From: Candidatus Saccharimonadales bacterium
GTDB lineage: Bacteria > Patescibacteriota > Saccharimonadia > Saccharimonadales > 2-12-FULL-41-12
DNA: 60,860 nt
Assembly (NCBI GenBank): GCA_041600715.1
Contig: JBFIJM010000004.1
Coordinates: 1 to 60,860 of the forward strand
Reading direction: 5' to 3'
The position numbers and the translations under genes were made by a program. A model generated the notes under the pieces. The model was not told the DNA's origin. It made no database searches and saw only the letters and a list, made by a program, of their open reading frames with translations. This document shows positions 4,419 through 60,860 of the stretch, piece by piece. Position 1 is the stretch's first letter; each line of letters opens with the position of its first letter.

Positions 4419-4754
4419 ATGTGGGGGTTATCGACGTTGGTTGTTTTTGTTATAATGACATTATTAATATTGCACTTGTATAATACAGCATACGCCACGA
4501 GGGTGTACTTTTTTCACAGTGAATCATGTAAATATTGTATCGACCTTGAACCTGCTTGGGATATGTTTATTAATAGTTCTCCATCAAGTGTTCGTCCTAT
4601 GAAGATAGATAAAAATGCCAACACCAAGATGGCTGAGAATTTTGGTGTATCTTCTGTGCCGCATATTGTTAAAGTCCAGGGAGATAATCGATATGTTTAT
4701 GATGGCGATCGGTCAGCTGAAGATTTACTTAGATGGGCGAAGCGTGATGAATAA
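4419..4754 (+). CDS. Thioredoxin-fold protein with N-terminal membrane anchor
   Basis: The track ORF opens on TTG at 4305; the first ATG is 4419, preceded by TATATAGAA. CxxC motif in FHSESCKYCIDLEPAW, and a downstream FGVSSVPHIVKV typical of thioredoxins. Confidence 0.75.
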   Translation: MWGLSTLVVFVIMTLLILHLYNTAYATRVYFFHSESCKYCIDLEPAWDMFINSSPSSVRPMKIDKNANTKMAENFGVSSVPHIVKVQGDNRYVYDGDRSAEDLLRWAKRDE

Positions 4755-5433: not shown

Positions 5434-6240
5434 CTAGCACACTTCAATAAATGAACCAAGGGTACATAACCACTTCAAAATAGGACCTATCATTTCTATC
5501 TTCTTCTCGACAGATAGATAATTTTTTTCAAAGTCATCATTAAACCTGTCATATTGTAAAATTTTATTTTGTACACCTGCAAATCTTGTCTTGCTAATGT
5601 CAACACCTTTCGATGCAAAAAATTCTCCCTGAACTTTTAGTAAAGACATAATTGAAGACAATAATACATCTACCTTACCAAGATCTTTACTTTCATTATG
5701 GACTCTTCTAAGATATGACGATGCATCGGTATTTTTTAATTCTATCTTTATTTTCGATATGTTTGAGTAAAATTCCCTATAGGGATTTACTGGAATCATA
5801 AAACCATGTTTTTCATTGATAAAAGCATTAACGATCACTCTCGACACGCCGCTTAATGAGTCAACTTTATACCACTGGTCATTAACCCTTTTTAATCCAA
5901 AGATATGCCCTTGATTAAATACAAATATAAAATCCCCCTTGAGATTTTTCAATAGGGTCTCAACTGTAAGTCGATGACCTGGTTGAATCCAATGTATCCG
6001 ACAATGTACACCATATTTCTTCATAATGTACGATACGAGATTTTCACGGCAAAAGTATGAAAAATCCCATGAATCGCAACTCATACCATTGTAACATTTA
6101 TAATTTTTTAGCTGGTCGTCAAATTCTTTTTTATACTTGGCAAAAACTTCTTGGCTAATTTCAGATCTACCAAAATAGGCATTGCAAGCATGCATACGAC
6201 ATAACCCACCAATTTGTCTTTCATAAAAAATCCCGTCCAT
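5434..6240 (-). CDS. Josephin-domain (MJD-family) cysteine protease, putative deubiquitinase
   Basis: The N-terminus MDGIFYERQIGGLCRMHACNAYFG parallels ataxin-3 MESIFHEKQEGSLCAQHCLNNLLQ (catalytic Cys in context). Later, FNQGHIFGLKRVNDQWYKVDSL parallels YKEHWFTVRKLGKQWFNLNSL (catalytic His, with Asp in place of Asn). Confidence 0.75.
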   Translation of the reverse strand: MDGIFYERQIGGLCRMHACNAYFGRSEISQEVFAKYKKEFDDQLKNYKCYNGMSCDSWDFSYFCRENLVSYIMKKYGVHCRIHWIQPGHRLTVETLLKNLKGDFIFVFNQGHIFGLKRVNDQWYKVDSLSGVSRVIVNAFINEKHGFMIPVNPYREFYSNISKIKIELKNTDASSYLRRVHNESKDLGKVDVLLSSIMSLLKVQGEFFASKGVDISKTRFAGVQNKILQYDRFNDDFEKNYLSVEKKIEMIGPILKWLCTLGSFIEVC

Positions 6241-6259
6241 TATATATTAAAACGAATAG
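6241..6259. promoter_or_regulatory. 19-nt divergent intergenic region beginning TATATAT
   Basis: Lies between the ATG of 5434..6240 (-) and the ATG of 6260..6934 (+). Confidence 0.35.
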
Positions 6260-13702: not shown

Positions 13703-16675
13703 ATGAATCGATATCTTAAAGAAAACTCAGATGAACTTGGTCGGATAGTATGGTTTAAAAAAACTCCCGGTATCGATTATTCTGTAAGTGGCGGGTCTGC
13801 CGAGTCTGCCGAGTCTGCCGAGTCTGCCGAGTCTGCCGGGTCTGCCGGGTCTGCCGAGGCAAATATTAAACGTTTGATAAAATTCAAAGGCACCAATGAT
13901 CACTTATACGACCGATTCATATCAATTATAAATAATAAAAGTAGGAACATTGAATTCCCCAAGGGTACGTCTCATCGCGATTTCAGAAATAAATTTCTTG
14001 AAATTGTAGAATCAACGAAAAACGACGATGAATTTTTCAAAGTGTTTGGAAAATATTTTCGGGATATATCTGCCGAATCAAAATTCACCGAATTCGCTCG
14101 TGGTGAGAATCGAGCCAAAAACTTAAAGGGTAAATTTCCATTTGACGGTCGGTTCAATAGTAAATCAAGATATTTAGACTTCGGTACATTTAGAGGAGAA
14201 ATCGCTAAGGCAATTGCTAGTGAATATGGTATCGCGCCATCTAACATATATGGGGTCGACATAAAAAAACAAAAAGACCTGAAAGGTATTAAATTCAGCC
14301 TTATTAAGAAGGATGGAAAAATACCCCATAAAGATAATTACTTCGATCTTATAACTTGTCTTATGGTTTTACATCATGTCGATAAAGATTCATTGATATT
14401 TACTCTAAGCGAAATATTCAGGGTATTAAAACCAGGTGGTATACTTATCTTACGTGAACATGATTTAACAGGGATCGACTCACGCGAGTTTAGTATAATA
14501 TTAGATTTACTTCATCGATTCTATGACCAGTTGTGGGAACCAACAAGTTCATGGGATCAATGTGGTGATGATCATTCAACGAATTATATGTCAATAACAT
14601 GGCTTACTTCTAGAATGAAGGAAGTCGGTTTTGTCCAAGGAGGTGTATTCAATAATAAAAATTATAAGTACAATCCATTTAACACATATGATGTTGTTTT
14701 TACGAAATCTCTCGAAGGCGGATATACCCGTTCACCTACTAAATGTCAGTCGTCAAGTAGTAATTTGCCCGGTTGTAAGCCGTCAAGTGGGGTTTTATCA
14801 AAAAGCACATCGTCGCAGATCACAAAGCTAGATTTAACTACAGAATGCATTATCGATAGTATTCTTGATATTAAACCCAACAATGATCCTCCGTATGAAA
14901 TCTCCGACATAAAAAAAACAATTCCCTACGAATGCCATAGAGGATTTTTTAATATGAACGTTCACTACGGTCAAAGAAAATTACTACTGACCGAAATAGA
15001 ATTTTATTCTAAATGTCTCATCCGGCAGCAAGGAAATATTGTCATATACGCTGGGTCGGCATCGGGGGAACATACCCCTATTATCCTAGATATGTATAAA
15101 CATCTGAAATTTATTTTCATAGATCCCAACTACCACTCATTTGATAAATACACCTACCAATACATCTACCAAAATACACCTGTTATATTAAAGGATAACC
15201 TAAAACAGTTCAAACGTGGTGAAAAATATAAACATCTAACCAAAGTCGATTTCCTATATGGCGGAAGGGCAAATGTCATAGATACAGCTGTTCAATACCA
15301 AACAACATCAGTCGAAGATCCATTTATTGTTAAGTCACGTGAAGATTTCGAAGGGGGTTTATATAAAAATTTAATCTCGGACATTATGCAGAGCAAGCAT
15401 AGGGTTTTTATCATTCAAGATTATATGACTATTAAATTGACTGAGATGTTCAAGGAGTCGCTTGATATTTATAATGAGGTTAAGAAACTGAAGGGTGGAG
15501 TTGGAGTTGGAGTTGGAGTTGGAGTTGGAGTTGGAGTTGGAGTTGGAGCTAGCGGCGGCGGTCGCAAGGTGCCCAAAAAATCCGCGGCCGCGAAGATCGC
15601 TATTAAGAAGATTAATGACGACGACTCGTCGCCACTTGTATCGACACCATCGCCGGCATCATCGCCAAATGTAGAGCTATATTTTCTAACGGATATCCGG
15701 ACAAATTTATTCCAAGACTCGCCGCATGATATTGAAGTATTGTGGAACTACGCCCTTCAGGTTATATTCCTAAAAATTCTTCAACCAACCTACAGTATGT
15801 TAAAATTTCGCCCTCCATATTTCGGAGAACTAAAAAGTGAACTTACTCGAGGATTTACTCTTCTTATGGAAGACGACGAGGAGTATAAAAAAATTATACC
15901 ATCAGGTAAACATATGATTTCAAATGTGATTAAGGGTGATTTGAAATTTGTTCATGAAAATTATGGTCTTGACTTGTTCGGTAATTACTTAAATGATAAT
16001 TTTACTTATTTAGACAATGATTTTATCTACATACAGCCTTGGTCACCGAAGGGTTCAACAGAGACACGTTTGTTCATTTCTAGAAAAACTTTGTCCAAGC
16101 CATATATTATTTATGATCAATATGCTTGGGAAGATAAATTCTTCTATCTAAGATATTATAAAAATTACGCATACCATGGTGTGTTTTATGAAAAGATTAA
16201 AGATATGAATACAATTTATGATGGATGTTACGACTGCACCCGGGAGCTGATGATTTTAGGAGGGTACATGTTGTCTTTGAAAAACATAGATAAATTTACA
16301 ACTGTTCCAAAAAAATATGATCTCCAAGAGATAGCTAAAATATTTGATTCTCCGAAAAACATCAAAACTTTATTGAAGTTATCTCAAACCATCGAAAGAT
16401 ACACTTGGAGTAAACTTGGGGTTGATCAAAAATCAAGTTGGCATGGAATATTAAATAAACCACCCTCACAAATTATCTTGAATACTATTAAAAGACCTGG
16501 TGATAGTATTCAAGGATATTTATTGAATAAAAAAACCCGCAAGGCGGATTTGATTTACTCATATACTAGTCCTATATGTAAGGCAGTCGATCGGCTGCGC
16601 GCAAAAAACGCCAGAGACATATGCATGCAAAACTTCAAAGTAGTTAATGACCCATGGAGACTTGAACCAATTTAA
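13703..16675 (+). CDS. Fusion of a class I SAM-dependent methyltransferase with a poxvirus VP39-like cap-specific 2'-O-methyltransferase
   Basis: The N-terminal part carries FDLITCLMVLHHV...IFRVLKPGGILILREHD (Methyltransf_11-like). The C-terminal part carries HYGQRKLLLTEIEFY...IVIYAGSASGEHTPIIL...IFIDPN, matching the VP39 pattern GQLKLLLGELFFL...VVYIGSAPGTH. In-frame repeats: (SAE/SAG)7 at 13795..13857 and (GV)8 at 15497..15544. Confidence 0.7.
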   Translation: MNRYLKENSDELGRIVWFKKTPGIDYSVSGGSAESAESAESAESAGSAGSAEANIKRLIKFKGTNDHLYDRFISIINNKSRNIEFPKGTSHRDFRNKFLEIVESTKNDDEFFKVFGKYFRDISAESKFTEFARGENRAKNLKGKFPFDGRFNSKSRYLDFGTFRGEIAKAIASEYGIAPSNIYGVDIKKQKDLKGIKFSLIKKDGKIPHKDNYFDLITCLMVLHHVDKDSLIFTLSEIFRVLKPGGILILREHDLTGIDSREFSIILDLLHRFYDQLWEPTSSWDQCGDDHSTNYMSITWLTSRMKEVGFVQGGVFNNKNYKYNPFNTYDVVFTKSLEGGYTRSPTKCQSSSSNLPGCKPSSGVLSKSTSSQITKLDLTTECIIDSILDIKPNNDPPYEISDIKKTIPYECHRGFFNMNVHYGQRKLLLTEIEFYSKCLIRQQGNIVIYAGSASGEHTPIILDMYKHLKFIFIDPNYHSFDKYTYQYIYQNTPVILKDNLKQFKRGEKYKHLTKVDFLYGGRANVIDTAVQYQTTSVEDPFIVKSREDFEGGLYKNLISDIMQSKHRVFIIQDYMTIKLTEMFKESLDIYNEVKKLKGGVGVGVGVGVGVGVGVGASGGGRKVPKKSAAAKIAIKKINDDDSSPLVSTPSPASSPNVELYFLTDIRTNLFQDSPHDIEVLWNYALQVIFLKILQPTYSMLKFRPPYFGELKSELTRGFTLLMEDDEEYKKIIPSGKHMISNVIKGDLKFVHENYGLDLFGNYLNDNFTYLDNDFIYIQPWSPKGSTETRLFISRKTLSKPYIIYDQYAWEDKFFYLRYYKNYAYHGVFYEKIKDMNTIYDGCYDCTRELMILGGYMLSLKNIDKFTTVPKKYDLQEIAKIFDSPKNIKTLLKLSQTIERYTWSKLGVDQKSSWHGILNKPPSQIILNTIKRPGDSIQGYLLNKKTRKADLIYSYTSPICKAVDRLRAKNARDICMQNFKVVNDPWRLEPI

Positions 16676-19887: not shown

Positions 19888-21336
19888 ATGGCAAGTTCCG
19901 CCTTTGATCTGACTTCGGTCCAAGCTGGAGCCTCTCGGGCTCCAGCTTTCTCTGATGATGAGCTTATTGCATCCGCTATGTTAGCCATCATTGATGAACG
20001 CGAGAATGAAGAAGCGTCTTTGAAGCTTGTGCGTCAACTCCAAAAGGAAGAAAAGCGTAAATTGATCCAAATAAAGAAAGATTTAAAGCTTGCTAAGAAA
20101 TTAGAGCGCAAATCCGCACATCCTTCTCAGCGCAAATCCGCACATCCTTCTCAGCACAAATCCGCACATGAGTTAAGTGCGGAAGAAATTGAGTTTCTCA
20201 AGAGCAAAGAAGAGTCTTGGAAGCTTGTGCGTCAACTCCAAAAGGTCGAAGAGAGTCGACAGATCCAAATACTGGAAGATTTAAAGCTTGCTCAAAAATC
20301 CCAGCTCGCCTTCGAATATCATCCTCAGCTCGCCCCCGAATATCCTCCTCAGCTCACCCCTGCACGGGTTGAACGAAAAGCTTGTCAGTCGCCTCAAAAG
20401 TACCCGAACATTCATTTACCTGTCCCCGAGAAGTTTGCTGTGGGTCGAAGTACTCGGATGCCGGAAAATTTTGGACACAGTAGCGCATGTGCAATTAATG
20501 CTATTCTGGCTGCCGGTAATGATGACATTACTCTTCAGAATATTTGGGATTGCCTCGTTGCAGCGAAGACGAAATTTCCAGGCACGATGAAAGAAGCCAA
20601 GGGAGGTAAGCAGATCGGAGAACCTATTTTCATGATTTGTTACCATCTCCTATTCCCCACGGGAAGAGGATCGTTTTCGATCTTGGCGTATCGCGGCATT
20701 AACCAAGAGACCGGCAAGCACTCGTCCACCACCTTGGTTACTGTCGGTTCTTCTGACGGTCCTCACTTTGACTTCATGCAAACGCACCTGTCTAGCCAAT
20801 GGCGTAACCAGCCGGTTGCTCACGAAAGAGCTACTGCATCGCTCGGACATTGGGTTTGTGTTAATGGGGATGATAGTCGATATATTGAGGCGCTTCAAAA
20901 CAACTTTGATGAGAAGTACCAAGATGGCGATGTCGGTTATTGCGAGGCATGGCATTATTCCGCGATTGGAACTGCAACAGATTATGAAAATGGTGACTCA
21001 GTTGCACGAAATTCTCCAAACTTCCTAGCAGCTCAAGCCCGAGCCCGAGCGCCAGCCCGAGCGCCAGCCCGAGCGCCAGCCCAAGCGCCATCCCGAGCGC
21101 CAGCCCAAGCGCCATCCCGAGCGCCATCCCGAGCGCCAGCCCGAGCGCCAGCCCAAGCGCCAGCCCGAGCGCCATCCCGAGCGCCATCCCGAGCGCCATC
21201 CCGAGCGCCATCCCGAGCGCCATCCCGAGCGCCATCCCGAGCGCCATCCCGAGCGCCATCCCGAGCGCCATCCCGAGCGCCAGTCCGAGCGCCATCCCGA
21301 GCGCCAGCGTTTGCCTATGATCCACACTTTCTTTAG
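19888..21336 (+). CDS. Hypothetical protein: duplicated LVRQLQ helix motif, Cys/His domain, (SRAPA)n tail
   Basis: 482-aa ORF. It has two copies of (S)(L/W)KLVRQLQK(E/V)EE...DLKLA, a central region with GHSSACAINAIL and LGHWVCV, and a C-terminal run of about 17 units of a 15-bp repeat at 21036..21308. Confidence 0.6.
   Translation: MASSAFDLTSVQAGASRAPAFSDDELIASAMLAIIDERENEEASLKLVRQLQKEEKRKLIQIKKDLKLAKKLERKSAHPSQRKSAHPSQHKSAHELSAEEIEFLKSKEESWKLVRQLQKVEESRQIQILEDLKLAQKSQLAFEYHPQLAPEYPPQLTPARVERKACQSPQKYPNIHLPVPEKFAVGRSTRMPENFGHSSACAINAILAAGNDDITLQNIWDCLVAAKTKFPGTMKEAKGGKQIGEPIFMICYHLLFPTGRGSFSILAYRGINQETGKHSSTTLVTVGSSDGPHFDFMQTHLSSQWRNQPVAHERATASLGHWVCVNGDDSRYIEALQNNFDEKYQDGDVGYCEAWHYSAIGTATDYENGDSVARNSPNFLAAQARARAPARAPARAPAQAPSRAPAQAPSRAPSRAPARAPAQAPARAPSRAPSRAPSRAPSRAPSRAPSRAPSRAPSRAPSRAPVRAPSRAPAFAYDPHFL
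21036..21308. repeat. 15-bp in-frame tandem repeat (CCCGAGCGCCA[G/T]C-type), ~17 units
   Basis: Read directly from the sequence. It encodes (A/S)RAP(A/S) in 19888..21336. Confidence 0.9.
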
Positions 21337-21381
21337 TAATAGTTATAGATTTAGTAATAGTTATAGTTAGTAGTCTAATGT

Positions 21382-21395
21382 AAAAAAATTTTTTT
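21382..21395. terminator. Palindromic A7T7 between convergent genes (putative bidirectional T-run terminator)
   Basis: AAAAAAATTTTTTT lies between the stop of 19888..21336 (+) and the stop of 21401..22423 (-). T-runs of 7 or more act as terminators in asfarviruses. Confidence 0.4.
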
Positions 21396-21400
21396 ATTTT

Positions 21401-22423
21401 TTATCTCTTCGATTCTCCAAGTACAGGATCAATAAATTTTGCCGATGCAGATGTCTCCGGGGCAAGATGTCGCACCATAGGCATTAAATGTTTCATCCTT
21501 TCGAGCTCAGTCTCTTTTTTGGAGATTATCCTGACACCTACGCCCTCGGCTGATGGTAATAACTTGACTGGTTTAAGGATATCTTGAACCGTCAGCCTAT
21601 GATTAGATTTTACCTCGTTCTGATCACACGCTTCCTTAAAAAGATTAACCATTTTATCCTTTCTTTGTTGATAAACTTGGACACGCAAGACTTCGACCAG
21701 ACTTCGAGTGTCTTCTTCTGGGAGTTTTTGTATTCCTGTTCGAATTCGATTGGTCAACTCTTGAACTAACTCAGCGCGATTTTCTTTTTCTTCGATCTCT
21801 ATACGTGACTCAGCCTGCTTGTGCATGTCGCGGAAGTCAGCAAATTCTTTCCGGAGAGATTTATATGTTTGCTCCCATACGTCCTTTGCCTCTTTCATAC
21901 CTAAATTCCTAATAAGACTGCCGTCATTACATGCTGCCCATAAATATTTAACGTAATCGGCTTGGCGTTTGCACCAATTATCTTCACGTTCACCCTTCTC
22001 AGAAATACTACTGGGGGTTGACTCGACGTTTTTTACTTTCTTTAAGTAAAGTCTAAAAGCAGATTCTTTATACTGTCCCATACATAACATATATCTGCAT
22101 ACTATCGGAAATTCATGTTGGAACTCTTTATGTTCTTTTTGCACCCATTCAATACGACTTTCTTCGCTTGATTCCTTGAACGACGGGTCGGATTTAATTC
22201 TGTCCAATATCTTTTTCCATATAACCCCGGCCTCACTAGTTGCCTTTTCAATATACTCTTCGGGTGTTTGACCGATATGTTCTTGTTTTTCTTGTACTTC
22301 GACGCCCTTGACTAATTTATTTACAATCTCAACTGGTGTGAGTTGAGATGGGGTTGCAACCAATTCTGAACCTGTTGGTTCAGAATTGGTTTGCTTTTTA
22401 GCGCGTTGCTTTTTTCTGGGCAT
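21401..22423 (-). CDS. Hypothetical protein with basic N-terminus
   Basis: 340-aa ORF starting MPRKKQRAKKQ. No recognisable catalytic motif. Confidence 0.6.
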   Translation of the reverse strand: MPRKKQRAKKQTNSEPTGSELVATPSQLTPVEIVNKLVKGVEVQEKQEHIGQTPEEYIEKATSEAGVIWKKILDRIKSDPSFKESSEESRIEWVQKEHKEFQHEFPIVCRYMLCMGQYKESAFRLYLKKVKNVESTPSSISEKGEREDNWCKRQADYVKYLWAACNDGSLIRNLGMKEAKDVWEQTYKSLRKEFADFRDMHKQAESRIEIEEKENRAELVQELTNRIRTGIQKLPEEDTRSLVEVLRVQVYQQRKDKMVNLFKEACDQNEVKSNHRLTVQDILKPVKLLPSAEGVGVRIISKKETELERMKHLMPMVRHLAPETSASAKFIDPVLGESKR

Positions 22424-45086: not shown

Positions 45087-45150
45087 TGGATTATTTTGTT
45101 GCTCTTAGTAACAAAATTGTCTATATATACTGTTGAATTCAAATTTTAAC

Positions 45151-48100
45151 ATGTCCAAACCAACATTTATTATAGATGCAGGCGCAGGCGAGGATAAATC
45201 GACTGGATCAAACATGTCCCTGAATTTAAAAAAAGCATATATTCTTAAGCGTAAACTAGAGATGTTTGGATGGAAAGATGTTGGTGTTAGACTGGGTAAA
45301 CCACCAAAATTCGTCGACTTGCTCTATCTCGACTCGTTCGCCGATTGGAGAAAATATAAAAACACTCGATGTTATTTTAAAAACCTAGTCAAAGATTCAA
45401 TACTGTCCATAAGTGATAAATCTTTACTATATCATAACTTAGGCAAAATCGATTCGCATATAAGGGACACTTTCATGATGAGACAAATTGACGTTAACAT
45501 TACAGACTCGTCAAGCATCGAGGCATGTGAAAAATTGTTCGATGGGAGGATGTGGATTTTTAAACCAGTCGCCGGATGGAGTGGTAAAGGTATACAAGTT
45601 TTTAATAGTTACAACGGATTTAAAGAATACGCAGAATCGATTGACGTAGAAAACTGGAAATTTTTTAAATCAAAATCTTCAAGAGCTTCAATTTGGGTAC
45701 TCTCTGAATATATAGAAAATCCATTACTTATAGACGGCCATAAATTTCACTTGAGGCTTTATTTTACAGTGTATAAAAATACTAAAGGAGTAAAATCGTT
45801 CCTACACAACACTGGAATTATAATGGTGTCTAAATTTAAATATGATTTGTCATCCAGCGACATAGTAATACATAGTGTTCATAGCGACGACTCAGAAAAA
45901 CACGAGTTTCCTCGTGAGTATATTAAGTACTTCACTGAAAAAAATGCTAAAAAATTACATAACGACCTCCTAAAAATATTCAAAGCAGTCTCGAAGATAG
46001 ATTTTATGGAATGTTTTGAGGAGTCAAAAAAATGTTTTTATGATTTTGGATGTGATGTTATGATCACGGATAAATATGAGACCAAGCTTATCGAGATAAA
46101 CGACAAAGCTGGCATATCAAGTTTCATAACTATCGATAAATTTGGTAAATGTTATGTACCAAATTTGATGAAATTGATATTTGATCCTGTATTCTTTCCT
46201 AAATTGACCAACCCCGAGAAAAAAATACGGTATACCGATACGGATTATACTCTTATAAGTGTTGGAGAAGGTGGAGATGTAAATAAATCTACCACAAAAA
46301 CCTTTACAGTTTATCTATACAATACAGACACAGGATTTCAAAAACATTCTATTGATTATTTTAATAGATATGGATGGACACACATCCCCATTAGTCGAAA
46401 CATGAAGGGTCATATTAATTATCTCGACTATTCTCTAGACCATTGGCGATATTTTCAGAATGTAACTTCAGACATACGTTCGTCAGCTGACCCCTCACGA
46501 AAAAGATGGAAAGATAAATCTAGTCTATACAATGTTTTGGGGTCGACCCCACGGGGTAAACTTATCCGTGACAAATTCATGATGAAGCAATATGATGTTG
46601 ATTCGAATAATATCATGGGTGAATCGAAGCAATCCGAGAAGTTTAAAGAATTTAAGAACATATTTGATGGACGGAAATATATATTAAAACCAATAACAGG
46701 ATGGAAGGGTCTTGGTATAAAAATTACGGCATCACATAATGAAGCGTTGAAACATTTTAACCAAACTAACCAAATGGACTGGATTTATCACAAAGATAAA
46801 CAATCTGAATCAACTAAATGGGTTATTGCTGAGTACATTGATAACCCTCTTTTAATCCAAGGATGTAAATTTCATATCAGGGCATATTTTATGGTCTACC
46901 TGGATTCAGGATTTAAGACTGGAGCCACTCCGAAAATTAAAGGATATTTATTTAAGACAGGAATAATTATGCAAGCCATAAAAAAGTATAGACCGTCAAA
47001 TTACGATGACGATCAGGTACATAATATCCACGCTGGCAATTCAATAAAAAAAATATATCCAAATACTTTTATAAAAGAATTTGGACTCGCAACCACCAAT
47101 AAAATTAATACTAATATGCAGGAGTATTTTATTGAATTGTTCAATATTATAAACACAGGTTGTTACCCTGAAACTAAGAATTGCTTTACTCTTTACGGCG
47201 CTGACATCATGTTTGATGCGTCGTTTAATGTGAAAATACTCGAGATAAATTCATCTATCGGACGCAAATCTTTATCTGAAAAAAAAGAAGCATATGAATT
47301 TATGAACAACATATTTTCCATATGTATCGTACCAAACTATGGAAAACCTGCGAAATGGAAAGACCTCAAAGCTTATTGGGTAATCGGAGAAAAGTGTATC
47401 GATGATAAAAAATCGGCAGGTTCGATTGGTAAAATATCAGGGTCGGAGCGTCAAAAAACATATCTTATAGATTTAAAAGTCAAAGATTCTAAACCGTTTG
47501 AAAAGCAATTAACGAAGTATCTTGACGATAATGGGTGGGTTAACCACTTAGATTTATTTGCACCAGATGATGGAATCGACCACACAGTCGGTCTACTAAT
47601 ACATAAAAAATATGATTGGAAATCATATGACAAATATAAATCCACAATCCATGCATCTACAGAAAATGAACGGTCAATCACAAATAAATCAGCAATTTAT
47701 GATATCTCCGGAATAAAAAAATATATGATGCCCCAGTATACTATTGATTCAAGGAACAGCGATGATCTTGAAAGGGTGAAGAAATATTTTACTGGTAAAA
47801 TTCGATTTATAGTTAAACCTATGATGGGGTCCATTGGAATGGGTATATTTATAGCAAATACCCATCAAGCGTTGTTGAAAAATTTAGGTAGTAGCCATGT
47901 AGTGATTTATGATATGTATAAAAAAAGCGCTGATGTATATAGATGGATATTAGCCGAATATATTGAAAACCCTCTACTACTCAAGGGGCGTAAGTTTCAT
48001 ATACGTGTATTCTATCTTGTGACTGTGATTAATGGCGTCATTCGAGCATACATATATGGTAAAAATTACATAATGTACGCGACAAAGAAATATAATAAAA

Positions 48101-49698
48101 CATCAACTGACATACTGGTGCATAATATACATTCCGATAATTCTTCTAAATGTGTATTTCCCAAATGCTACACCGACGAATTTGGTCAAGCGAAGACTGA
48201 TAAATTAATAAAAGACTTGAAGGATATCTTTACTATTATTTTTAAGGTGTATAAATCTAAATGTTATGATAGCTCGGACCATTGTTACAACGTTTTTGGT
48301 GCTGACATAATGGTTACCGATAAATATGAAACGAAAATCATAGAGCTAAATCAAGAACCTGGTAAAAAGTATTTATCTGAGTCGACCGAATTATTCGATC
48401 ATTATACGCAAAATCTACAAGAGCTTGTGATTAATCCAGTATTTGGCCCTCCAACCACTGAGTGGAAAGATAAACATTCATATGTGCAAGTTGGTGGGCC
48501 TAAGCTCAGCAATGGTAAATCTTCATCATCGCAGATAGGAGGAGATAGAGATGCGAGTGATGCGAGTGATGCGAGTGATGACGAAACTAAAAAACAAATT
48601 TATGAAGGTGAAAAACACACCTTCGCCGTTGAGTCGGATTATTTTGCCCCATACCTAAATAAGAAAATAATAGAACTTGGTGCTGGGATGTGGGAAGAAT
48701 TTTCTTTATCGTCGTCGGCCAGACAAGGTGATCAAAAAATATCATTCCTCTACATGGATAATCTATCACTTCCTTGGAAAAAATATAAAAATACCCATGC
48801 AACTGTAAAAAATGTAGTCGATAATACTAAATATAGCATTGCCGATAAAGCAAACTTATATCAAAATCTTGCCGGGCCTGTGCGTAAGAAATTTATGCCA
48901 CTTCAGTATACGATAGATTTAGGTACAGAACCGGATGGCTTCACCAAATGGTGTGAGTGTAACTGTGAGAAATATCGTAAAATTATTAAACACGACATGT
49001 GGATGCTTAAACCAGTAACTGGGTACAAAGGTATTGGGATAAAAATGGTGGATAATTTCGGCGACTTCAAACGTCATCTTAGAGAGCATCGTCAAGAAGA
49101 TCATGCACATGGGTCTGAGCGATCCAAACGAGTTGGTGTATGGGTCCTATCTAAATACATAGATCCACCGCTGCTGTTTAAAGGGCATAAATTTCATATA
49201 CGTCTATATTATTTAGTTAGTCAAATCGAGGGCAAAGTACATGGGTATATATTTAAATCTGGCCACCTTTATATTTCAAAAAAGAAATATAAAATGTCTA
49301 GCCATTCGACAGACATCCATAATTTGCATCTTGATAATTCTAACATAGATTTATTCCCTGAAAGTTACGCCAAAGAATTTGGTGTTGATGCATGTGTTAA
49401 ATTATACACGGAAATCTATAAAATGTTTCAAGGAGTATTCGACATAACTAAAATTGGATGTTTCGACGACTCTTCAAATTGTTACTATATCTATGGAGCC
49501 GACATTATGGTTACAGAAGACGGGTGTCCCAAACTACTGGAGGTTAATACCTCTCCACATCTTGGTGTTATGAACATTAATAAAACGTTAGCCAACCGAT
49601 ATGTCACTAATATATTCTCATTAGTATTAAATCCTATATTCGGCGAACCACCTGGATTTCCTAAGAATAATGATTATATTCTCATTGGGGAGAAATAA
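45151..49698 (+). CDS. Protein with four tandem tubulin-tyrosine-ligase-like (TTL, ATP-grasp) modules
   Basis: The track ORF opens on TTG at 45133; the first ATG is 45151. Four modules start at about nt 45151, 46290, 47455 and 48610. Each carries W(I/M)xKP..G..G.GI, WV(L/I)(S/A)(E/K)YI(E/D).PLL..G.KFH(L/I)R.Y and (F/Y)G.D(V/I)M......K(L/I)(L/I)E(I/L/V)N. Confidence 0.8.
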   Translation: MSKPTFIIDAGAGEDKSTGSNMSLNLKKAYILKRKLEMFGWKDVGVRLGKPPKFVDLLYLDSFADWRKYKNTRCYFKNLVKDSILSISDKSLLYHNLGKIDSHIRDTFMMRQIDVNITDSSSIEACEKLFDGRMWIFKPVAGWSGKGIQVFNSYNGFKEYAESIDVENWKFFKSKSSRASIWVLSEYIENPLLIDGHKFHLRLYFTVYKNTKGVKSFLHNTGIIMVSKFKYDLSSSDIVIHSVHSDDSEKHEFPREYIKYFTEKNAKKLHNDLLKIFKAVSKIDFMECFEESKKCFYDFGCDVMITDKYETKLIEINDKAGISSFITIDKFGKCYVPNLMKLIFDPVFFPKLTNPEKKIRYTDTDYTLISVGEGGDVNKSTTKTFTVYLYNTDTGFQKHSIDYFNRYGWTHIPISRNMKGHINYLDYSLDHWRYFQNVTSDIRSSADPSRKRWKDKSSLYNVLGSTPRGKLIRDKFMMKQYDVDSNNIMGESKQSEKFKEFKNIFDGRKYILKPITGWKGLGIKITASHNEALKHFNQTNQMDWIYHKDKQSESTKWVIAEYIDNPLLIQGCKFHIRAYFMVYLDSGFKTGATPKIKGYLFKTGIIMQAIKKYRPSNYDDDQVHNIHAGNSIKKIYPNTFIKEFGLATTNKINTNMQEYFIELFNIINTGCYPETKNCFTLYGADIMFDASFNVKILEINSSIGRKSLSEKKEAYEFMNNIFSICIVPNYGKPAKWKDLKAYWVIGEKCIDDKKSAGSIGKISGSERQKTYLIDLKVKDSKPFEKQLTKYLDDNGWVNHLDLFAPDDGIDHTVGLLIHKKYDWKSYDKYKSTIHASTENERSITNKSAIYDISGIKKYMMPQYTIDSRNSDDLERVKKYFTGKIRFIVKPMMGSIGMGIFIANTHQALLKNLGSSHVVIYDMYKKSADVYRWILAEYIENPLLLKGRKFHIRVFYLVTVINGVIRAYIYGKNYIMYATKKYNKTSTDILVHNIHSDNSSKCVFPKCYTDEFGQAKTDKLIKDLKDIFTIIFKVYKSKCYDSSDHCYNVFGADIMVTDKYETKIIELNQEPGKKYLSESTELFDHYTQNLQELVINPVFGPPTTEWKDKHSYVQVGGPKLSNGKSSSSQIGGDRDASDASDASDDETKKQIYEGEKHTFAVESDYFAPYLNKKIIELGAGMWEEFSLSSSARQGDQKISFLYMDNLSLPWKKYKNTHATVKNVVDNTKYSIADKANLYQNLAGPVRKKFMPLQYTIDLGTEPDGFTKWCECNCEKYRKIIKHDMWMLKPVTGYKGIGIKMVDNFGDFKRHLREHRQEDHAHGSERSKRVGVWVLSKYIDPPLLFKGHKFHIRLYYLVSQIEGKVHGYIFKSGHLYISKKKYKMSSHSTDIHNLHLDNSNIDLFPESYAKEFGVDACVKLYTEIYKMFQGVFDITKIGCFDDSSNCYYIYGADIMVTEDGCPKLLEVNTSPHLGVMNINKTLANRYVTNIFSLVLNPIFGEPPGFPKNNDYILIGEK

Positions 49699-55989: not shown

Positions 55990-57417
55990 ATGGCAAAAGA
56001 ACAAGCTCTATCGGGCATATCGGGCGACTGGAAGAAGGTGTTGAACGGCGGAAAAGCCGCTAAACTACTAGTAAAAGTGTTTGAAGAACTCAAGGACGTT
56101 GATGAAAAAACCTTGTGTCCAAGCATAAAGGACATCTTTAATGCGTTTAGATTCCCATTTGAGCAAGTATCGGTGATTATCATAGGACAAGATCCATATC
56201 ATACCCCTGGCCACGCTCATGGTTTAAGTTTTAGCTCTTTGGCAGACACGGTACCGCCATCCCTTCACAAAATTTATAAATGTCTACAGACAGATGGATT
56301 AATTGGGTCAGATGCAGGTCCCGCATCGGGGGACCTGACCCCTTTGCGAGATCAAGGGGTACTTTTACTCAATAGTGCATTGACTACTGTTCACGGTAAA
56401 CCTGGTGCTCATATTAAGATTTGGAGTGCCTACATCGACTCCGTAATACATCGAATAAACGCTCTTTCTCTAAAGAAAGATAATAAACTTATATACTTGC
56501 TTTGGGGCGCCGATGCGCAGAAAAAGGCTGATGCAAAAAAGAAAAACCTAATGGACAAACACATAGTACTTACTGCAGCGCATCCAATGGCTTACCTAAA
56601 AGATTCCGACGAATTATCGTTCGTCCAGTGCGGACACTTCCTGCAGGCGAATAAATTGCTGAAGGGCATGGATAAACATGTTATTGACTGGGATTGGTCG
56701 TCTTCGTCGTCTTCGTCGCCTGAGTCGCCTGCGTCGCCTGAGTCGCCTGCGTCGCCTGCGTCGCCTGCGTCGCCTGCGTCGCCTGCGTCGCCTGCCGTGA
56801 CTACAGAAAAATCCAGGGCACAGATTCGCAGATATTTTACAGGAGGTGAACGAACATGTGTATGCTTTACCGATGGGTCATGCAGTCCAAATAAGAGATG
56901 TCCGGAAGCGCAAGGTGGATACGCAACTGTATTTACTCAAGGATTGTTAAACGATACTCGCATCTACGGATCTCTAAATACTGAAAAGAACTTTGCGTCA
57001 AATATGCGTGCAGAAGGATATGCTATTCTTCGAGGTCTTCAATATGCAAGTGATGAAAAGCATATTGAAGACTGGGATGTCTTTGTTGTCGTCACCGATA
57101 ATCTTAAATGGATGGAAATGATAACTCAGGACATGGCATCTTGGTCACCAGAAAAATTCGCCACTCAGTCAAATCCGGATATTACTTTACCACTATGGCA
57201 GCTATGGAAGAAGATGGAGTTTGAAAATGAAAAGAAGATGATTATTCTCCACATGAAATCCCACGATAAAGATGGGTGGAGCAGGTACCCTGATGGTAGC
57301 TACGAGAAATATTGTTACGAGCAAAATAAGTACGTAGATATTTTAGCTAAATATGCTCGTGAAGAAATGGACCGAGGTGATGAGTCTATTGATGCAGCTG
57401 AATATGAATCAGAATAA
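55990..57417 (+). CDS. Fusion of a family-1 uracil-DNA glycosylase with RNase H1
   Basis: UDG part: VIIIGQDPYHTPGHAHGLSFS (water-activating GQDPYH loop) and TAAHPMAYL (HPSPLS-equivalent). RNase H part: CFTDGSC...GGYATVF, NMRAEGYAILRGLQYA, VVVTDNLKWMEMI, HMKSH...NKYVDILAKYA (D-E-D-D pattern). The (SPA/SPE)9 linker is encoded at 56716..56796. Confidence 0.8.
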   Translation: MAKEQALSGISGDWKKVLNGGKAAKLLVKVFEELKDVDEKTLCPSIKDIFNAFRFPFEQVSVIIIGQDPYHTPGHAHGLSFSSLADTVPPSLHKIYKCLQTDGLIGSDAGPASGDLTPLRDQGVLLLNSALTTVHGKPGAHIKIWSAYIDSVIHRINALSLKKDNKLIYLLWGADAQKKADAKKKNLMDKHIVLTAAHPMAYLKDSDELSFVQCGHFLQANKLLKGMDKHVIDWDWSSSSSSSPESPASPESPASPASPASPASPASPAVTTEKSRAQIRRYFTGGERTCVCFTDGSCSPNKRCPEAQGGYATVFTQGLLNDTRIYGSLNTEKNFASNMRAEGYAILRGLQYASDEKHIEDWDVFVVVTDNLKWMEMITQDMASWSPEKFATQSNPDITLPLWQLWKKMEFENEKKMIILHMKSHDKDGWSRYPDGSYEKYCYEQNKYVDILAKYAREEMDRGDESIDAAEYESE

Positions 57418-57489: not shown

Positions 57490-59985
57490 ATGGAAAAAGC
57501 ATTGCGCGATTTGATAAAAACTCGTTGGATCCAACTAAATGTTTACAACGGCATGTTATTTAATGACTTCTTTAGCCCAGTGTCTCTGAAAAAACCTAAA
57601 GCATATTATATTAAGGCCCGGCAGATTTTAGAGAGAAATCTCTCGGATATCCAGAATCAAGCTAAGAAAACACCAGTTCATTTACATAAAGGTTTACTAG
57701 ACAGGGTGAACCGATTATTTGACTCATATAAGAGTATACTCAATGATAACTTTGCTAAACATGTTATAGATACCGAACGAGTAGAAATTAAGACACCTCG
57801 TACACAACCTTTACCAGATATTGTCTATAAAGGAGTCGACGTAAAGCAGTTTAGTAAAAGTGAGGAGGCCCATATGAAAGCAATCCGAGAGGCTAAATTG
57901 GCGGACGCAATCAATCGGCATAAAGCTGTAATTGATGCCAAGAATCAGGCTAACGCGTTGCTACAACAGATGGAACAAAACCTAAGCAACTTAAATAAGA
58001 TGCTACAAAATATCCGTGAATTGGAAGATAAAATTAAAGAAGAAGAGGATAAATGGGTACGAGCTAAGGCTGAAGCTAATTCAGTTATTTTGGAAGCTCA
58101 GCGGAAAGCTGAGGAAGCTCAGCGGGAAGCTGAGGAAGCTCAGCGGAAAGCTGAGGAAGCTAGGTTGGAAGCTCAGCGGGAAACTAGGTTGGAAGCTCAG
58201 CGGAAAGCTGAGGAAGCTAAGCTGAAATCTGAGAAAGCTGAGCGGGAAGCTCAGCGGGAAGCTCAGCGGAAAGCTGAGGAAGCTCAGCGGAAAGCTGAGG
58301 AAGCTCAGCGGAAAACTCAGCGGGAAGCTGAGGAAGCTCAGCGGGAAGCTAAGCAGAAAGCTGAGGAAGCTGAGCGGGAAGCTAAGCAGAAAGCTGAGGA
58401 AGCTAAGCAGAAAGCTGAGCGGGAAGCTAAGCAGAAAGCTGAGCGGGAAGCTAGGTTGGAAGCTGAGCGGGAAGCTAAGCAGAAAGCTGAGCGGGACGCT
58501 AGGTTGAAAGTTGAGCGGGAAGCTAGGTTGGATGCTGAGGTAGCTAAGTGGAAAGCTGAGAGAGCTAAGTTGAAAGCTGAGGAAGCTCAGCGGGAAGCTG
58601 AGCGGGAAGCTGAGGAAGCTAAGTTGAAAACTCAGCGGGAAGCTGAGGAAGCTAAGTTGAAAGTTGAGCGGGAAGCTAGGTTGGATGCTGAGGTAGCTAA
58701 GTGGAAAGCTGAGGAATCTGAGCGGGAAGCTAAGCAGAAAGCTGAGCGGGACGCTAGGGTGAAAGATCAGATAATTAAGTTGGCAGCTGAGTTGAAAGAT
58801 GAGAGAGCTAAGCAGGAAGCTGAGCGGAAAGCTGAGGAAGCTAAGTTGAAAACTAAGCATGAAGCTGAGCGGAAAGCTGAGCGGGAAGATAAACCGGAGG
58901 AGATAAAAACAGAAGCTCAAAGTAGTAAAACGAAGGCGGAAGCGACCTGGATTGAACAAACTAGTCATGGTCCTGCGAAATCAAAATCCACTTCTAATGT
59001 CGAAAGTGTTCAAGAATACCTTTTAAATCAACAAAAAAAATCAGAAATGGCATTCAAACAATGCTTAACTGAAGAATTCAAATGGGTGGATAGAATAGGC
59101 AATCCTTATTTCGGTGTGGAACATACTGAAAAATTCGTGACAGATATGATTCATAGAGAACATTGCTTTAAGCTATTGAATATTATGAATTGGTACTCTG
59201 AAAAATTAAAAAAAATTAAGAGTTCTAAAAAATCGAGTATTGATTTGAGTGATCTTAAACAAGAAGAGACGATGATGATAGGTGCTGAGCAAAAAAAGTA
59301 TTTAGTCTCTAAAGAAGAAAAAATCAAGTATCTTATGAATAAATATCCGGAAATTTTCCGGAAACGTGAAGAGCATAAGAAACGTTTGGAAAAAAAAAAG
59401 AAAAAAGATTTATTAGTAAAGGAACATAAAGGGTATACGGAACTTTTGGAAGAAAAAAAGAAAGAAAAAGAATTATTGGTACCAAAATACTCCTCATTTA
59501 TCTCGCCCATATCCATAAAACAGATAAATGAGATAACTAAATTAGATAAGGAAATTAGTAAGCTGGAAAGTAAGGTTAGATTACTCAGGGAACGAATAGA
59601 ATTAATTAATATTACAGGAGGTCGTAATGAGTCGTCACCGAGCACATCAATAGAAAGAAAACATTTATTAAAACAATCTGATGTAGACGATGCCTCGCCA
59701 ACTTCATTGTCTACACCTCTTTTAATCGAACCCACAACAGAAGATTCATCTACCAACATGTTGTATGTAAACAACCCAAACATATTTACATCGGGAGGAA
59801 GAACAAAATATACGGGGGGGCAAGAAATTAATGATGTCGATCCGACTAGCGCAATCATATTAGGAGTGGGATGTGGGATGGCATTTATTATGCAGAACAT
59901 TTTAGTATTTATAATAATAGCTCTTATTATTATTATATATTATACTTGTACACCTTTACTGGTTCAAAATGAAGTCTGCGTCTGA
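57490..59985 (+). CDS. Tail-anchored long coiled-coil protein with ~270-aa E/A/K/R/Q 8-residue repeat region
   Basis: 831-aa ORF. The repeats (AQRKAEEA / AEREAKQK) are encoded at about 58081..58900. C-terminal TM segment: ILGVGCGMAFIMQNILVFIIIALIIIIYY. Confidence 0.7.
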   Translation: MEKALRDLIKTRWIQLNVYNGMLFNDFFSPVSLKKPKAYYIKARQILERNLSDIQNQAKKTPVHLHKGLLDRVNRLFDSYKSILNDNFAKHVIDTERVEIKTPRTQPLPDIVYKGVDVKQFSKSEEAHMKAIREAKLADAINRHKAVIDAKNQANALLQQMEQNLSNLNKMLQNIRELEDKIKEEEDKWVRAKAEANSVILEAQRKAEEAQREAEEAQRKAEEARLEAQRETRLEAQRKAEEAKLKSEKAEREAQREAQRKAEEAQRKAEEAQRKTQREAEEAQREAKQKAEEAEREAKQKAEEAKQKAEREAKQKAEREARLEAEREAKQKAERDARLKVEREARLDAEVAKWKAERAKLKAEEAQREAEREAEEAKLKTQREAEEAKLKVEREARLDAEVAKWKAEESEREAKQKAERDARVKDQIIKLAAELKDERAKQEAERKAEEAKLKTKHEAERKAEREDKPEEIKTEAQSSKTKAEATWIEQTSHGPAKSKSTSNVESVQEYLLNQQKKSEMAFKQCLTEEFKWVDRIGNPYFGVEHTEKFVTDMIHREHCFKLLNIMNWYSEKLKKIKSSKKSSIDLSDLKQEETMMIGAEQKKYLVSKEEKIKYLMNKYPEIFRKREEHKKRLEKKKKKDLLVKEHKGYTELLEEKKKEKELLVPKYSSFISPISIKQINEITKLDKEISKLESKVRLLRERIELINITGGRNESSPSTSIERKHLLKQSDVDDASPTSLSTPLLIEPTTEDSSTNMLYVNNPNIFTSGGRTKYTGGQEINDVDPTSAIILGVGCGMAFIMQNILVFIIIALIIIIYYTCTPLLVQNEVCV

Positions 59986-60860
59986 GGCGAAACAGTTCGT
60001 CAATTCATTTTTTAATATGATGCGCGAAAAAAACGAAAACACTCGTTCTGTGGAATTTTCTGTCGCTCATAAACATATCCTGCAAGACATTGACAATGAG
60101 CTACATCTTTTTAATGTTGGGAAGGGAGTATATAAAGGATTAACCACACCTCAGAAAGAAAAAAAATACCGAGCAACTCTTAAGCATATTTTATCAAAGA
60201 CATATAATGGGTATAAAAGTCATATAGAGGATGTTTTTGTTGAAACTGACACATCAGTGACTTATACTGAGGAAGAATTGGAACAAAAAATCATTGAGAA
60301 AGAACGACTAATAACTAGAATTATTGAACCGCGTCCATATGAATCTGGACAATACTTAGATGAAATAATAAAAAATCAGGAAGCCGCCATTCGCAATGAG
60401 CACGAGCTGCTTAATGACCTTGAAGCTAAAAATACTATTGTTGTAGATGATATCCGAAAAGCCGCTGGCGTGGACCCGGAAAATCCACAAACGGTCGACG
60501 AAATAATAAAATTTAACAGCGAATATCGTGCGGCTAAGCTCGAAAAATTGCAGGTTGTACGGGAGCAGAAAAGTGGAATTGATGAATTAGTTCGGCTAAC
60601 CAAGCTAATTCAAGGTTTAAAAGGCGACCCAGTACAGTTCAATGAAGTTGTTAAAGAGATACATCGTATAATTAAAAAAACCGAGGAAAAAATTGACGAC
60701 AACCTAAAAATACTACATGAAAAACACTTAAAAGAAGGAAAAGTGCGTATAACAAAAGAAGAAGAAGAAAACACAGCCCGACAAGAGGAGGAGGAGGAGG
60801 AGGAGGCGCGACGTAAAGCGGATGCGGAGGCGCGACGTAAAGCGGATGCGGAGGCGCGAC
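59969..60860 (+). CDS. Hypothetical coiled-coil protein, 5' partial (runs off window end); absent from supplied ORF track
   Basis: I translated by hand from ATG 59969 (MKSASEAKQFVNSFFNMMREKNE...) and found no stop up to 60860. It ends in poly-Glu and a 24-bp repeat encoding ARRKADAE. It overlaps the upstream gene by 17 nt. Confidence 0.6.
   Translation, partial: MKSASEAKQFVNSFFNMMREKNENTRSVEFSVAHKHILQDIDNELHLFNVGKGVYKGLTTPQKEKKYRATLKHILSKTYNGYKSHIEDVFVETDTSVTYTEEELEQKIIEKERLITRIIEPRPYESGQYLDEIIKNQEAAIRNEHELLNDLEAKNTIVVDDIRKAAGVDPENPQTVDEIIKFNSEYRAAKLEKLQVVREQKSGIDELVRLTKLIQGLKGDPVQFNEVVKEIHRIIKKTEEKIDDNLKILHEKHLKEGKVRITKEEEENTARQEEEEEEEARRKADAEARRKADAEAR

Follow-up and report, generated by a model that had tools for sequence, protein, structure and literature searches.

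A Josephin-family gene on a giant virus contig encodes a predicted cysteine peptidase with a family-specific C-terminal domain

Results

The Josephin locus and its genomic setting

The window analysed here, by which we mean the whole stretch of 60,860 nucleotides, originates from a marine metagenome and packs about 46 genes densely into its 61 kb. On its minus strand lies an intact ORF of 268 aa, running from ATG to stop, which encodes a protein of the Josephin family; the strand was missing from an earlier reading of this DNA made from the letters alone (hereafter the sequence-only reading). This ORF is the sole match to the family HMM across the window, and the gene is present as a single copy. 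The features of the locus are given below; conservation counts were taken over 152 representatives with mutual identity below 50%, and denominators are the homologues aligned at each residue.

5434..6240, minus strand: Josephin-family protein, complete ORF as read from the sequence, 268 aa plus TAG stop
5788..6240, minus strand: catalytic Josephin-fold domain, residues 1-151 (Pfam PF02099 spans residues 12-137; ataxin-3 aligns over 1-139; AlphaFold2 model)
6214..6216, minus strand: codon (CAA) of Gln9, predicted oxyanion-hole residue, equivalent to ataxin-3 Q9; Gln in 133/137 aligned homologues
6199..6201, minus strand: codon (TGT) of Cys14, predicted to act as catalytic nucleophile and placed where helix 14-23 begins, equivalent to ataxin-3 C14; 137/137
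6064..6066, minus strand: codon of Asp59, an acidic residue in the loop past helix 30-44, aligning with ataxin-3 D70 (NMDDSGFF motif)
5905..5907, minus strand: codon (CAT) of His112, predicted to act as catalytic base, with Ile113 and Phe114 next in the chain; His in 146/146
5860..5862, minus strand: codon of Asp127, predicted third triad residue, equivalent to ataxin-3 N134; of 144 homologues aligned here, 138 have Asp and 6 have Asn
5437..5784, minus strand: family-specific C-terminal five-helix domain, residues 153-268 (AlphaFold2 helices), kept in 123/145 homologues
6241..6259, no strand: divergent intergenic region of 19 bp, with start-proximal TAATATATA abutting the ATG and no AAAATTGA
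4419..4754, plus strand: membrane-anchored thioredoxin-like gene with a CKYC motif (Pfam Thioredoxin, E = 6e-9), a neighbour that converges on the Josephin gene and is conserved with it

The genome is that of a giant virus (NCLDV) and is probably Mimivirus-like. Among the NCLDV hallmarks in the window are an mRNA capping enzyme of three domains, whose best match on record reaches 39% identity, several SNF2/D6-D11-like helicases, a UvrD helicase, a dNMP kinase and MYG1. Together with the AAAATTGA promoters and the occurrence of homologues on giant-virus MAG contigs, these hallmarks confirm the viral setting proposed in the sequence-only reading. The hallmarks further comprise the following multidomain proteins, of which the longest is unusually large for a virus.

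13703-16675, plus strand: methyltransferase fusion of 990 aa, a class I methyltransferase with a poxvirus-type poly(A) polymerase regulatory / cap 2'-O-methyltransferase domain (PARP_regulatory)
45133-49698, plus strand: multi-TTL protein of 1521 aa, with five tubulin-tyrosine-ligase stretches (E = 3e-102) and other ATP-grasp signatures
55990-57417, plus strand: UDG-RNase H fusion of 475 aa, a uracil-DNA glycosylase joined to RNase H

Two stretches stand out in composition: 58001-60000 (GC skew +0.30, AT skew +0.28), which falls inside an 831-aa ORF (57490-59985) without a Pfam match, and 20001-22000 (GC 0.48), over an ORF of 482 aa that ends in a PT-repeat-like tail. The third-position GC content (GC3) of the Josephin gene, at 0.29, lies within the range of its neighbours (0.26-0.37), and a recent horizontal insertion of the gene was ruled out on the basis of this match.

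Two promoter-like motifs recur upstream of genes in the window. The first, AAAATTGA, the early promoter motif of Mimivirus type, is found 27-92 nt upstream of 13/46 genes. The second, ATATA, occurs no more than 20 nt from the ATG in 24/46 genes, compared with a background of 5-9%, and only four genes have both. Examples lie at 4754, 24312, 42039 and 55946, and at 6241-6252. The Josephin gene falls in the ATATA class (TTTTAATATATA directly before the ATG) and outside the AAAATTGA class, which suggests that its expression would be non-early.

Sequence and structure both point to the Josephin fold

The similarity of the encoded protein to Josephins is beyond chance, although the match of the single sequence falls below the curated threshold. 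Pfam Josephin (PF02099) matches the protein with E = 6.4e-4 and 20 bits, below the gathering score of 26 bits, and a search of the single protein against PDB finds ataxin-3 chains at E = 0.003. Among 56 aligned homologues, 31 match Pfam Josephin at E <= 0.01 (best 3.1e-9), some of them with scores of 30.5-32.9 bits, above the 26-bit cut-off. When a profile of the family is compared with PDB, only Josephins are significant, namely ataxin-3 (E = 7.8e-6) and ATXN3L (E = 1.5e-3); JOSD2 (E = 0.017, Cys region only) and the bacterial PaJOS (E = 0.018) are marginal. Profile searches thus recover the family to which the sequence-only reading had assigned the gene.

An AlphaFold2 model built from the 56-sequence alignment has a pLDDT of 92.4 and a pTM of 0.88 over the whole chain. 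Searched against PDB with Foldseek, the model matches ATXN3L best (E = 3.5e-6, probability 1.00), and all matches with E <= 1e-3 are Josephins: ATXN3L, ATXN3, Parachlamydia PcJOS and Pigmentiphaga PaJOS, with E-values from 3.5e-6 to 9e-4. C39 peptidases (E = 7e-3 to 2e-2) and UCH enzymes match about 1000-fold more weakly than Josephins do. Taken together, the Pfam, family-profile, PDB, AlphaFold2 and Foldseek evidence makes the assignment to the Josephin fold secure.

A C39 double-glycine leader peptidase was considered as another assignment and set aside because the fold match is weaker, there is no Pfam C39 match and no family member is fused to a transporter. Whole-chain Foldseek matches to UCH37 have low probability and an rmsd of about 20 A, and were discarded as meaningless. 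No domain fusions were found in the longer family members.

A large family in giant viruses

Searched exhaustively with a profile, a set of 1.84 billion representative proteins yielded at least 319 relatives (clusters at 50% identity) at E <= 1e-3, of which 182 are found at E <= 1e-10; word-indexed searches had returned two relatives with the protein as query and ten with a 136-sequence alignment. The relatives are mostly 240-290 aa long and align over their full length, and their cluster entries carry no label other than 'hypothetical protein'. Every one of the 15 confirmed IMG/VR loci belongs to a viral genome entry, 11 of these being named giant-virus MAGs (GVMAG), and a scan of metagenomes confirmed another 97 stretches as encoding a relative. 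No relative was detected in bacterial or archaeal genomes by a pattern scan of limited sensitivity, and no exact copy of the window protein is on record in assemblies.

The sequence-only reading was not aware of Josephins as a common gene class of viruses, but at this family size they are not rare in giant viruses, and a protein of Orpheovirus had been named as a Josephin before. Orpheovirus IHUMI-LCC2 encodes a 'Josephin domain-containing protein' (UniProt A0A2I2L6A4), so that a viral Josephin was already annotated in the database, albeit by automatic annotation; literature searches returned no papers on Josephins in giant viruses. This protein likewise has a giant-virus Josephin catalytic domain and is the sole significant match to our model in a structure search of BFVD (E = 1.1e-9, target TM 0.85, rmsd 2.6 A), in which giant-virus USP/UCH entries gave non-significant matches only. 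It is 24% identical to the window protein but has 143 aa, consists of the core only and lacks the C-terminal domain, and its virus is an amoeba virus resembling pithoviruses, where ours is marine and probably Mimivirus-like.

In one giant-virus genome, GVMAG-M-3300001589-11, two Josephin-family genes lie on two contigs (L010 and L015), which may be paralogues or reflect mixed strains.

Conservation of the catalytic residues

The sequence-only reading had aligned two segments of the protein with ataxin-3, and the alignment by HMMER agrees with both. Residues 1-139 align to residues 1-146 of ataxin-3. In the first segment, IFYERQIGGLCRMHACN (residues 4-20), Q9 and C14 fall on Q9 and C14 of ataxin-3, as claimed for the Josephin start with its catalytic Cys; in the second, GHIFGLKRVNDQWYKVDSL (residues 111-129), H112 falls on H119 and D127 on N134, the positions of the catalytic His and of the third triad residue. 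Outside these positions, E7, H17, N20 and D59 coincide with ataxin-3 E7, H17, N20 and D70.

The aligned Cys and His are conserved without exception (137/137 and 146/146), in favour of the sequence-only reading, and Gln9 and Asp127 are nearly so. Arg15, His17, Asn20, Asp59, Phe106, Ser128 and Gly146 are also nearly invariant among the 152 representatives; Asp59 is present in 56/56 sequences of the first alignment and is Asp in 142/148 of the larger homologue set, and may serve to bind the arginines of the ubiquitin tail. This pattern indicates purifying selection on what we predict to be catalysis, and it speaks against a pseudoenzyme. The predicted catalytic competence of the giant-virus Josephin family is thereby well supported at the level of sequence.

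These data bear on the reading that the protein is a catalytically dead Josephin-like scaffold which only binds ubiquitin, or that its similarity to Josephins is fortuitous. The single-sequence Pfam score under the curated threshold would be compatible with it, but about 150 homologues less than 50% identical to one another show hardly any variation at the Cys, His, Asp and Gln, the fold match has a probability of 1.00 and the family-level profile is significant. We consider this reading very improbable.

Departures from known Josephins

Three features are new at the level of the family: a C-terminal five-helix domain, the residue at the gatekeeper position and synteny with a thioredoxin-like gene. 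The first of these bears out the observation, made in the sequence-only reading, that the C-terminal part has no counterpart in Josephins; it comprises residues 153-268, about 116 aa. The AlphaFold2 model places five helices in it (153-168, 173-184, 189-210, 221-240 and 244-260) and packs them onto the catalytic domain. No sequence relative of this domain was found in Pfam, NCBIfam or PDB, and a Pfam scan of the whole protein at E <= 10 returned Josephin only, with neither UIMs nor a polyQ tail. The domain probably has a role in substrate or proximal-ubiquitin binding, or in regulation.

The second feature concerns the position directly after the catalytic His. In most deubiquitinase (DUB) classes, Josephins included, a conserved aromatic 'gatekeeper' at this position touches Gly75 of ubiquitin; in JOSD2 it is W126 (PMC7391069). 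The equivalent residue is W120 in ataxin-3 by our alignment, and F285 in PcJOS and F188 in PaJOS (bioRxiv 10.1101/2024.07.24.604956). In the window protein it is Ile113, and Ile or Val occupies the position in 142/146 homologues, an aromatic residue standing one position further on (Phe114; Trp, Tyr or Phe in 143/146). As the aromatic gatekeeper is missing family-wide, P2 specificity may depart from that of a standard DUB. In addition, the ubiquitin-binding alpha2/alpha3 arm of ataxin-3 appears reduced in the model to one helix (30-44) and a loop (45-67) that contains D59.

These departures raise the question of whether the substrate is something other than ubiquitin, such as a ubiquitin-like modifier with a bulkier P2 residue (ATG8/UFM1 type) or a specific site in a viral or host protein. 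Replacement by Ile/Val of the gatekeeper that keeps side chains out of P2 (PMC7391069) is in line with such a substrate, as are the apparently shortened arm, the unique C-terminal domain with no known ubiquitin-binding signature, and the fact that C39 double-glycine leader peptidases and the FMDV leader protease also match the fold, if more weakly. However, all significant matches are to ubiquitin-directed Josephins, the likeness to ataxin-3 extends beyond the triad (E7, H17, N20 and D59, with aromatic counterparts of Y27, F28 and W87), and no family member is fused to a transporter or polyprotein. We therefore regard a non-ubiquitin substrate as unlikely.

Relation to eukaryotic, bacterial and viral deubiquitinases

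Ataxin-3 and ATXN3L (MEROPS C86, PF02099; PDB 1yzb, 2aga and 3o65) are the best match of the viral protein in both sequence and fold. The viral protein and ataxin-3 share a domain that starts at residue 1, the positions of Gln9 and Cys14, the order of Cys before His and a papain-like core, whereas identity to ataxin-3/ATXN3L is about 15-17%. Where ataxin-3 has Asn as third triad residue and Trp after the His, the viral protein has Asp and Ile, and the UIMs and polyQ tail of ataxin-3 are replaced by the 116-aa five-helix domain, the alpha2/alpha3 arm also appearing shortened in the model. JOSD1 and JOSD2 (PDB 6pgv) resemble the viral protein in being small stand-alone enzymes with a Josephin catalytic core, although JOSD2 lacks a C-terminal helical domain.

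The bacterial Josephins (PcJOS, PDB 9fn4 and 9fpa; PaJOS, 9g7g; BpJOS) are, like the viral protein, non-eukaryotic Josephin folds carried by an intracellular parasite. They share with it a Cys-His-Asp triad and helical additions to the core, and match its model in Foldseek at E = 2.8e-5 to 9e-4. The additions differ in placement: those of the bacterial enzymes are N-terminal and form the S1' site, whereas that of the viral protein is C-terminal. The viral family lacks an N-terminal extension, its catalytic Cys being residue 14 and its alignment beginning at residues 1-5. At the position after His, bacterial Josephins retain Phe where the viral family has Ile/Val.

[quoted passage not shown] The viral protein might be a ubiquitin C-terminal 'clippase', as several bacterial Josephins are, cutting after Arg74 and before Gly-Gly and so destroying the modifier where a DUB would recycle it. 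Its fold match to the PcJOS/PaJOS clippase-family structures almost equals that to ATXN3, its third triad residue is Asp as in the bacterial enzymes, and the aromatic gatekeeper that it lacks is one that a clippase does not need, although most characterised clippases retain this residue (bioRxiv 10.1101/2024.07.24.604956). On the other hand, its highest sequence similarity is to ataxin-3, a conventional DUB, and the mode of cleavage cannot be read from the sequence.

Virus-encoded DUBs such as those of the herpesvirus large tegument protein, coronavirus PLpro, nairovirus OTU and giant-virus USP/UCH belong to other fold families. What they share in concept with the viral Josephin is a papain-like cysteine protease by which a virus edits the ubiquitin signalling of its host (PMC9741609).

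A conserved thioredoxin-like neighbour

The third family-level feature is a small thioredoxin-like gene with an N-terminal membrane anchor. In six diverged loci it directly adjoins the Josephin gene tail-to-tail, and in L134, L136 and L140 it is no more than 2-3 kb away; the window keeps the pair, with one ORF between them. The homologues in the six loci are listed below.

L005, 3947-4276: thioredoxin-like homologue
L101, 2388-2723: thioredoxin-like homologue
L103, 2987-3325: thioredoxin-like homologue
L107, 2379-2732: thioredoxin-like homologue
L110, 2141-2488: thioredoxin-like homologue
L131, 1402-1734: thioredoxin-like homologue

A first comparison of synteny against loci L001-L019 had found no shared neighbours, and the thioredoxin pair emerged only with the metagenome loci. 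The synteny spans homologues that are only about 30-36% identical. A strict redox partnership is doubtful, as the CxxC motif is gone from the homologues of L005 and L103.

Ubiquitin genes near Josephin genes

We examined the neighbourhoods of 87 unique Josephin loci (636 kb), where ten genes for ubiquitin or a ubiquitin-like protein lie no more than 10 kb from the Josephin gene and represent at least five lineages. Nine of these genes stop short of the C-terminal Gly-Gly, in most cases with Arg74 as the last residue; among the giant-virus ubiquitin genes of a general sample, Gly-Gly is missing in 22/82. Gly-Gly-less ubiquitin near Josephin genes would be expected of a clippase, for which an end at Arg74 is the product, or of an enzyme linked to Ub(1-74). 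A tight linkage of the two genes was nevertheless discarded, as none of 80 ubiquitin loci in the general sample has a Josephin gene within 10 kb. With this result, and with no ubiquitin gene or other gene of the ubiquitin system in the window, which counts against a ubiquitin protease in general as well as a clippase, the association appears loose and may be lineage-bound. A lineage effect could thus underlie the link to Gly-Gly-less ubiquitin, and we judge clippase activity, on all of this evidence, to be unlikely for the window protein.

Many giant-virus ubiquitins that are 93-100% identical to eukaryotic ubiquitin end right after Arg74 (LVLRLR-stop), and a few after Leu73 or Gly75, so that the Gly-Gly used in conjugation is absent. 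As the downstream sequences differ from contig to contig, these ends are no assembly artefact. No mention of Gly-Gly-less giant-virus ubiquitin was found in a survey of eL40/ubiquitin (PMC11499249) or in literature searches. Truncated genes were located as follows.

L009, 11713-11934: truncated ubiquitin gene
L013, 16372-16593: truncated ubiquitin gene
L016, 16988-17209: truncated ubiquitin gene
L150, 15298-15519: truncated ubiquitin gene
L102, 12420-12644, minus strand: truncated ubiquitin gene
L007, 17618-17836, minus strand: truncated ubiquitin gene
L020, L021, L026, L031, L041, L055, L061, L076, L079, L085, L088, L092, L095, L099: further loci with truncated ubiquitin genes

In two loci, on contigs from two samples, the next gene downstream of the Josephin gene is ubiquitin-like (L106, 1661-1897; L108, 1500-1736). 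It carries an internal duplication, GKTLIGKTLIRKTITL, is interrupted by an in-frame TAA where the canonical PPDQQRL has its second Gln, and ends in LLLR-stop; it is a decaying copy (pseudogene) common to the two contigs. In GVMAG-M-3300001352-24 (IMGVR), the Josephin gene and a ubiquitin ending in LRLRG-stop are found on separate contigs (L011 and L024).

Discussion

We consider it likely that the ORF encodes an active Josephin-fold cysteine (iso)peptidase of a marine Mimivirus-like virus, acting most probably on the tail of ubiquitin or a ubiquitin-like protein. A ubiquitin-removing enzyme is the most likely class, and we infer ubiquitin as the substrate. In the mechanism that we propose, Cys14, at the start of its helix, would attack the scissile bond, with His112 acting as the base, Asp127 orienting His112 and Gln9 contributing the oxyanion hole. 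The most likely substrate would be the C-terminal tail of ubiquitin or of a close ubiquitin-like modifier, and the five-helix domain, packed on the catalytic domain, could supply substrate or proximal-ubiquitin binding, or regulation. The host is presumed to be a marine protist, in whose infected cells the enzyme would strip or trim ubiquitin from host or viral proteins; alternatively, its job might be the maturation of capped viral ubiquitin precursors.

A different strategy would be built on non-conjugatable ubiquitin, with the Josephin clipping before Gly-Gly, or acting on Ub(1-74), and not recycling the modifier. Loss of the gatekeeper and an excess of Gly-Gly-less ubiquitin beside Josephin genes would both follow from such a strategy. 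If it is true, the Josephin and the ubiquitin ending at Arg74 that many of these viruses also encode would together swamp the host in a dead-end modifier and block ubiquitin receptors. We think it improbable that this strategy is in use, and favour a ubiquitin-removing enzyme.

Josephins are one of the seven classical classes of deubiquitinase and were long taken to be restricted to eukaryotes; it was only in 2024-25 that bacterial Josephins with an unexpected ubiquitin-'clipping' chemistry came to be described. A third and large reservoir, with the clusters reported here, lies in giant viruses of aquatic protists. If the viral enzyme is a conventional DUB, it would be just another eukaryote-like gene in the giant-virus repertoire. 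The viral family is altered at the very residue on which selectivity for P2 (Gly75) depends in nearly all DUBs, and has a conserved accessory domain of its own. It thus offers a natural experiment on how Josephins choose their substrate and the position at which they cleave, one that may yield new tools for ubiquitin research and gives a hint that marine giant viruses may manipulate the ubiquitin system.
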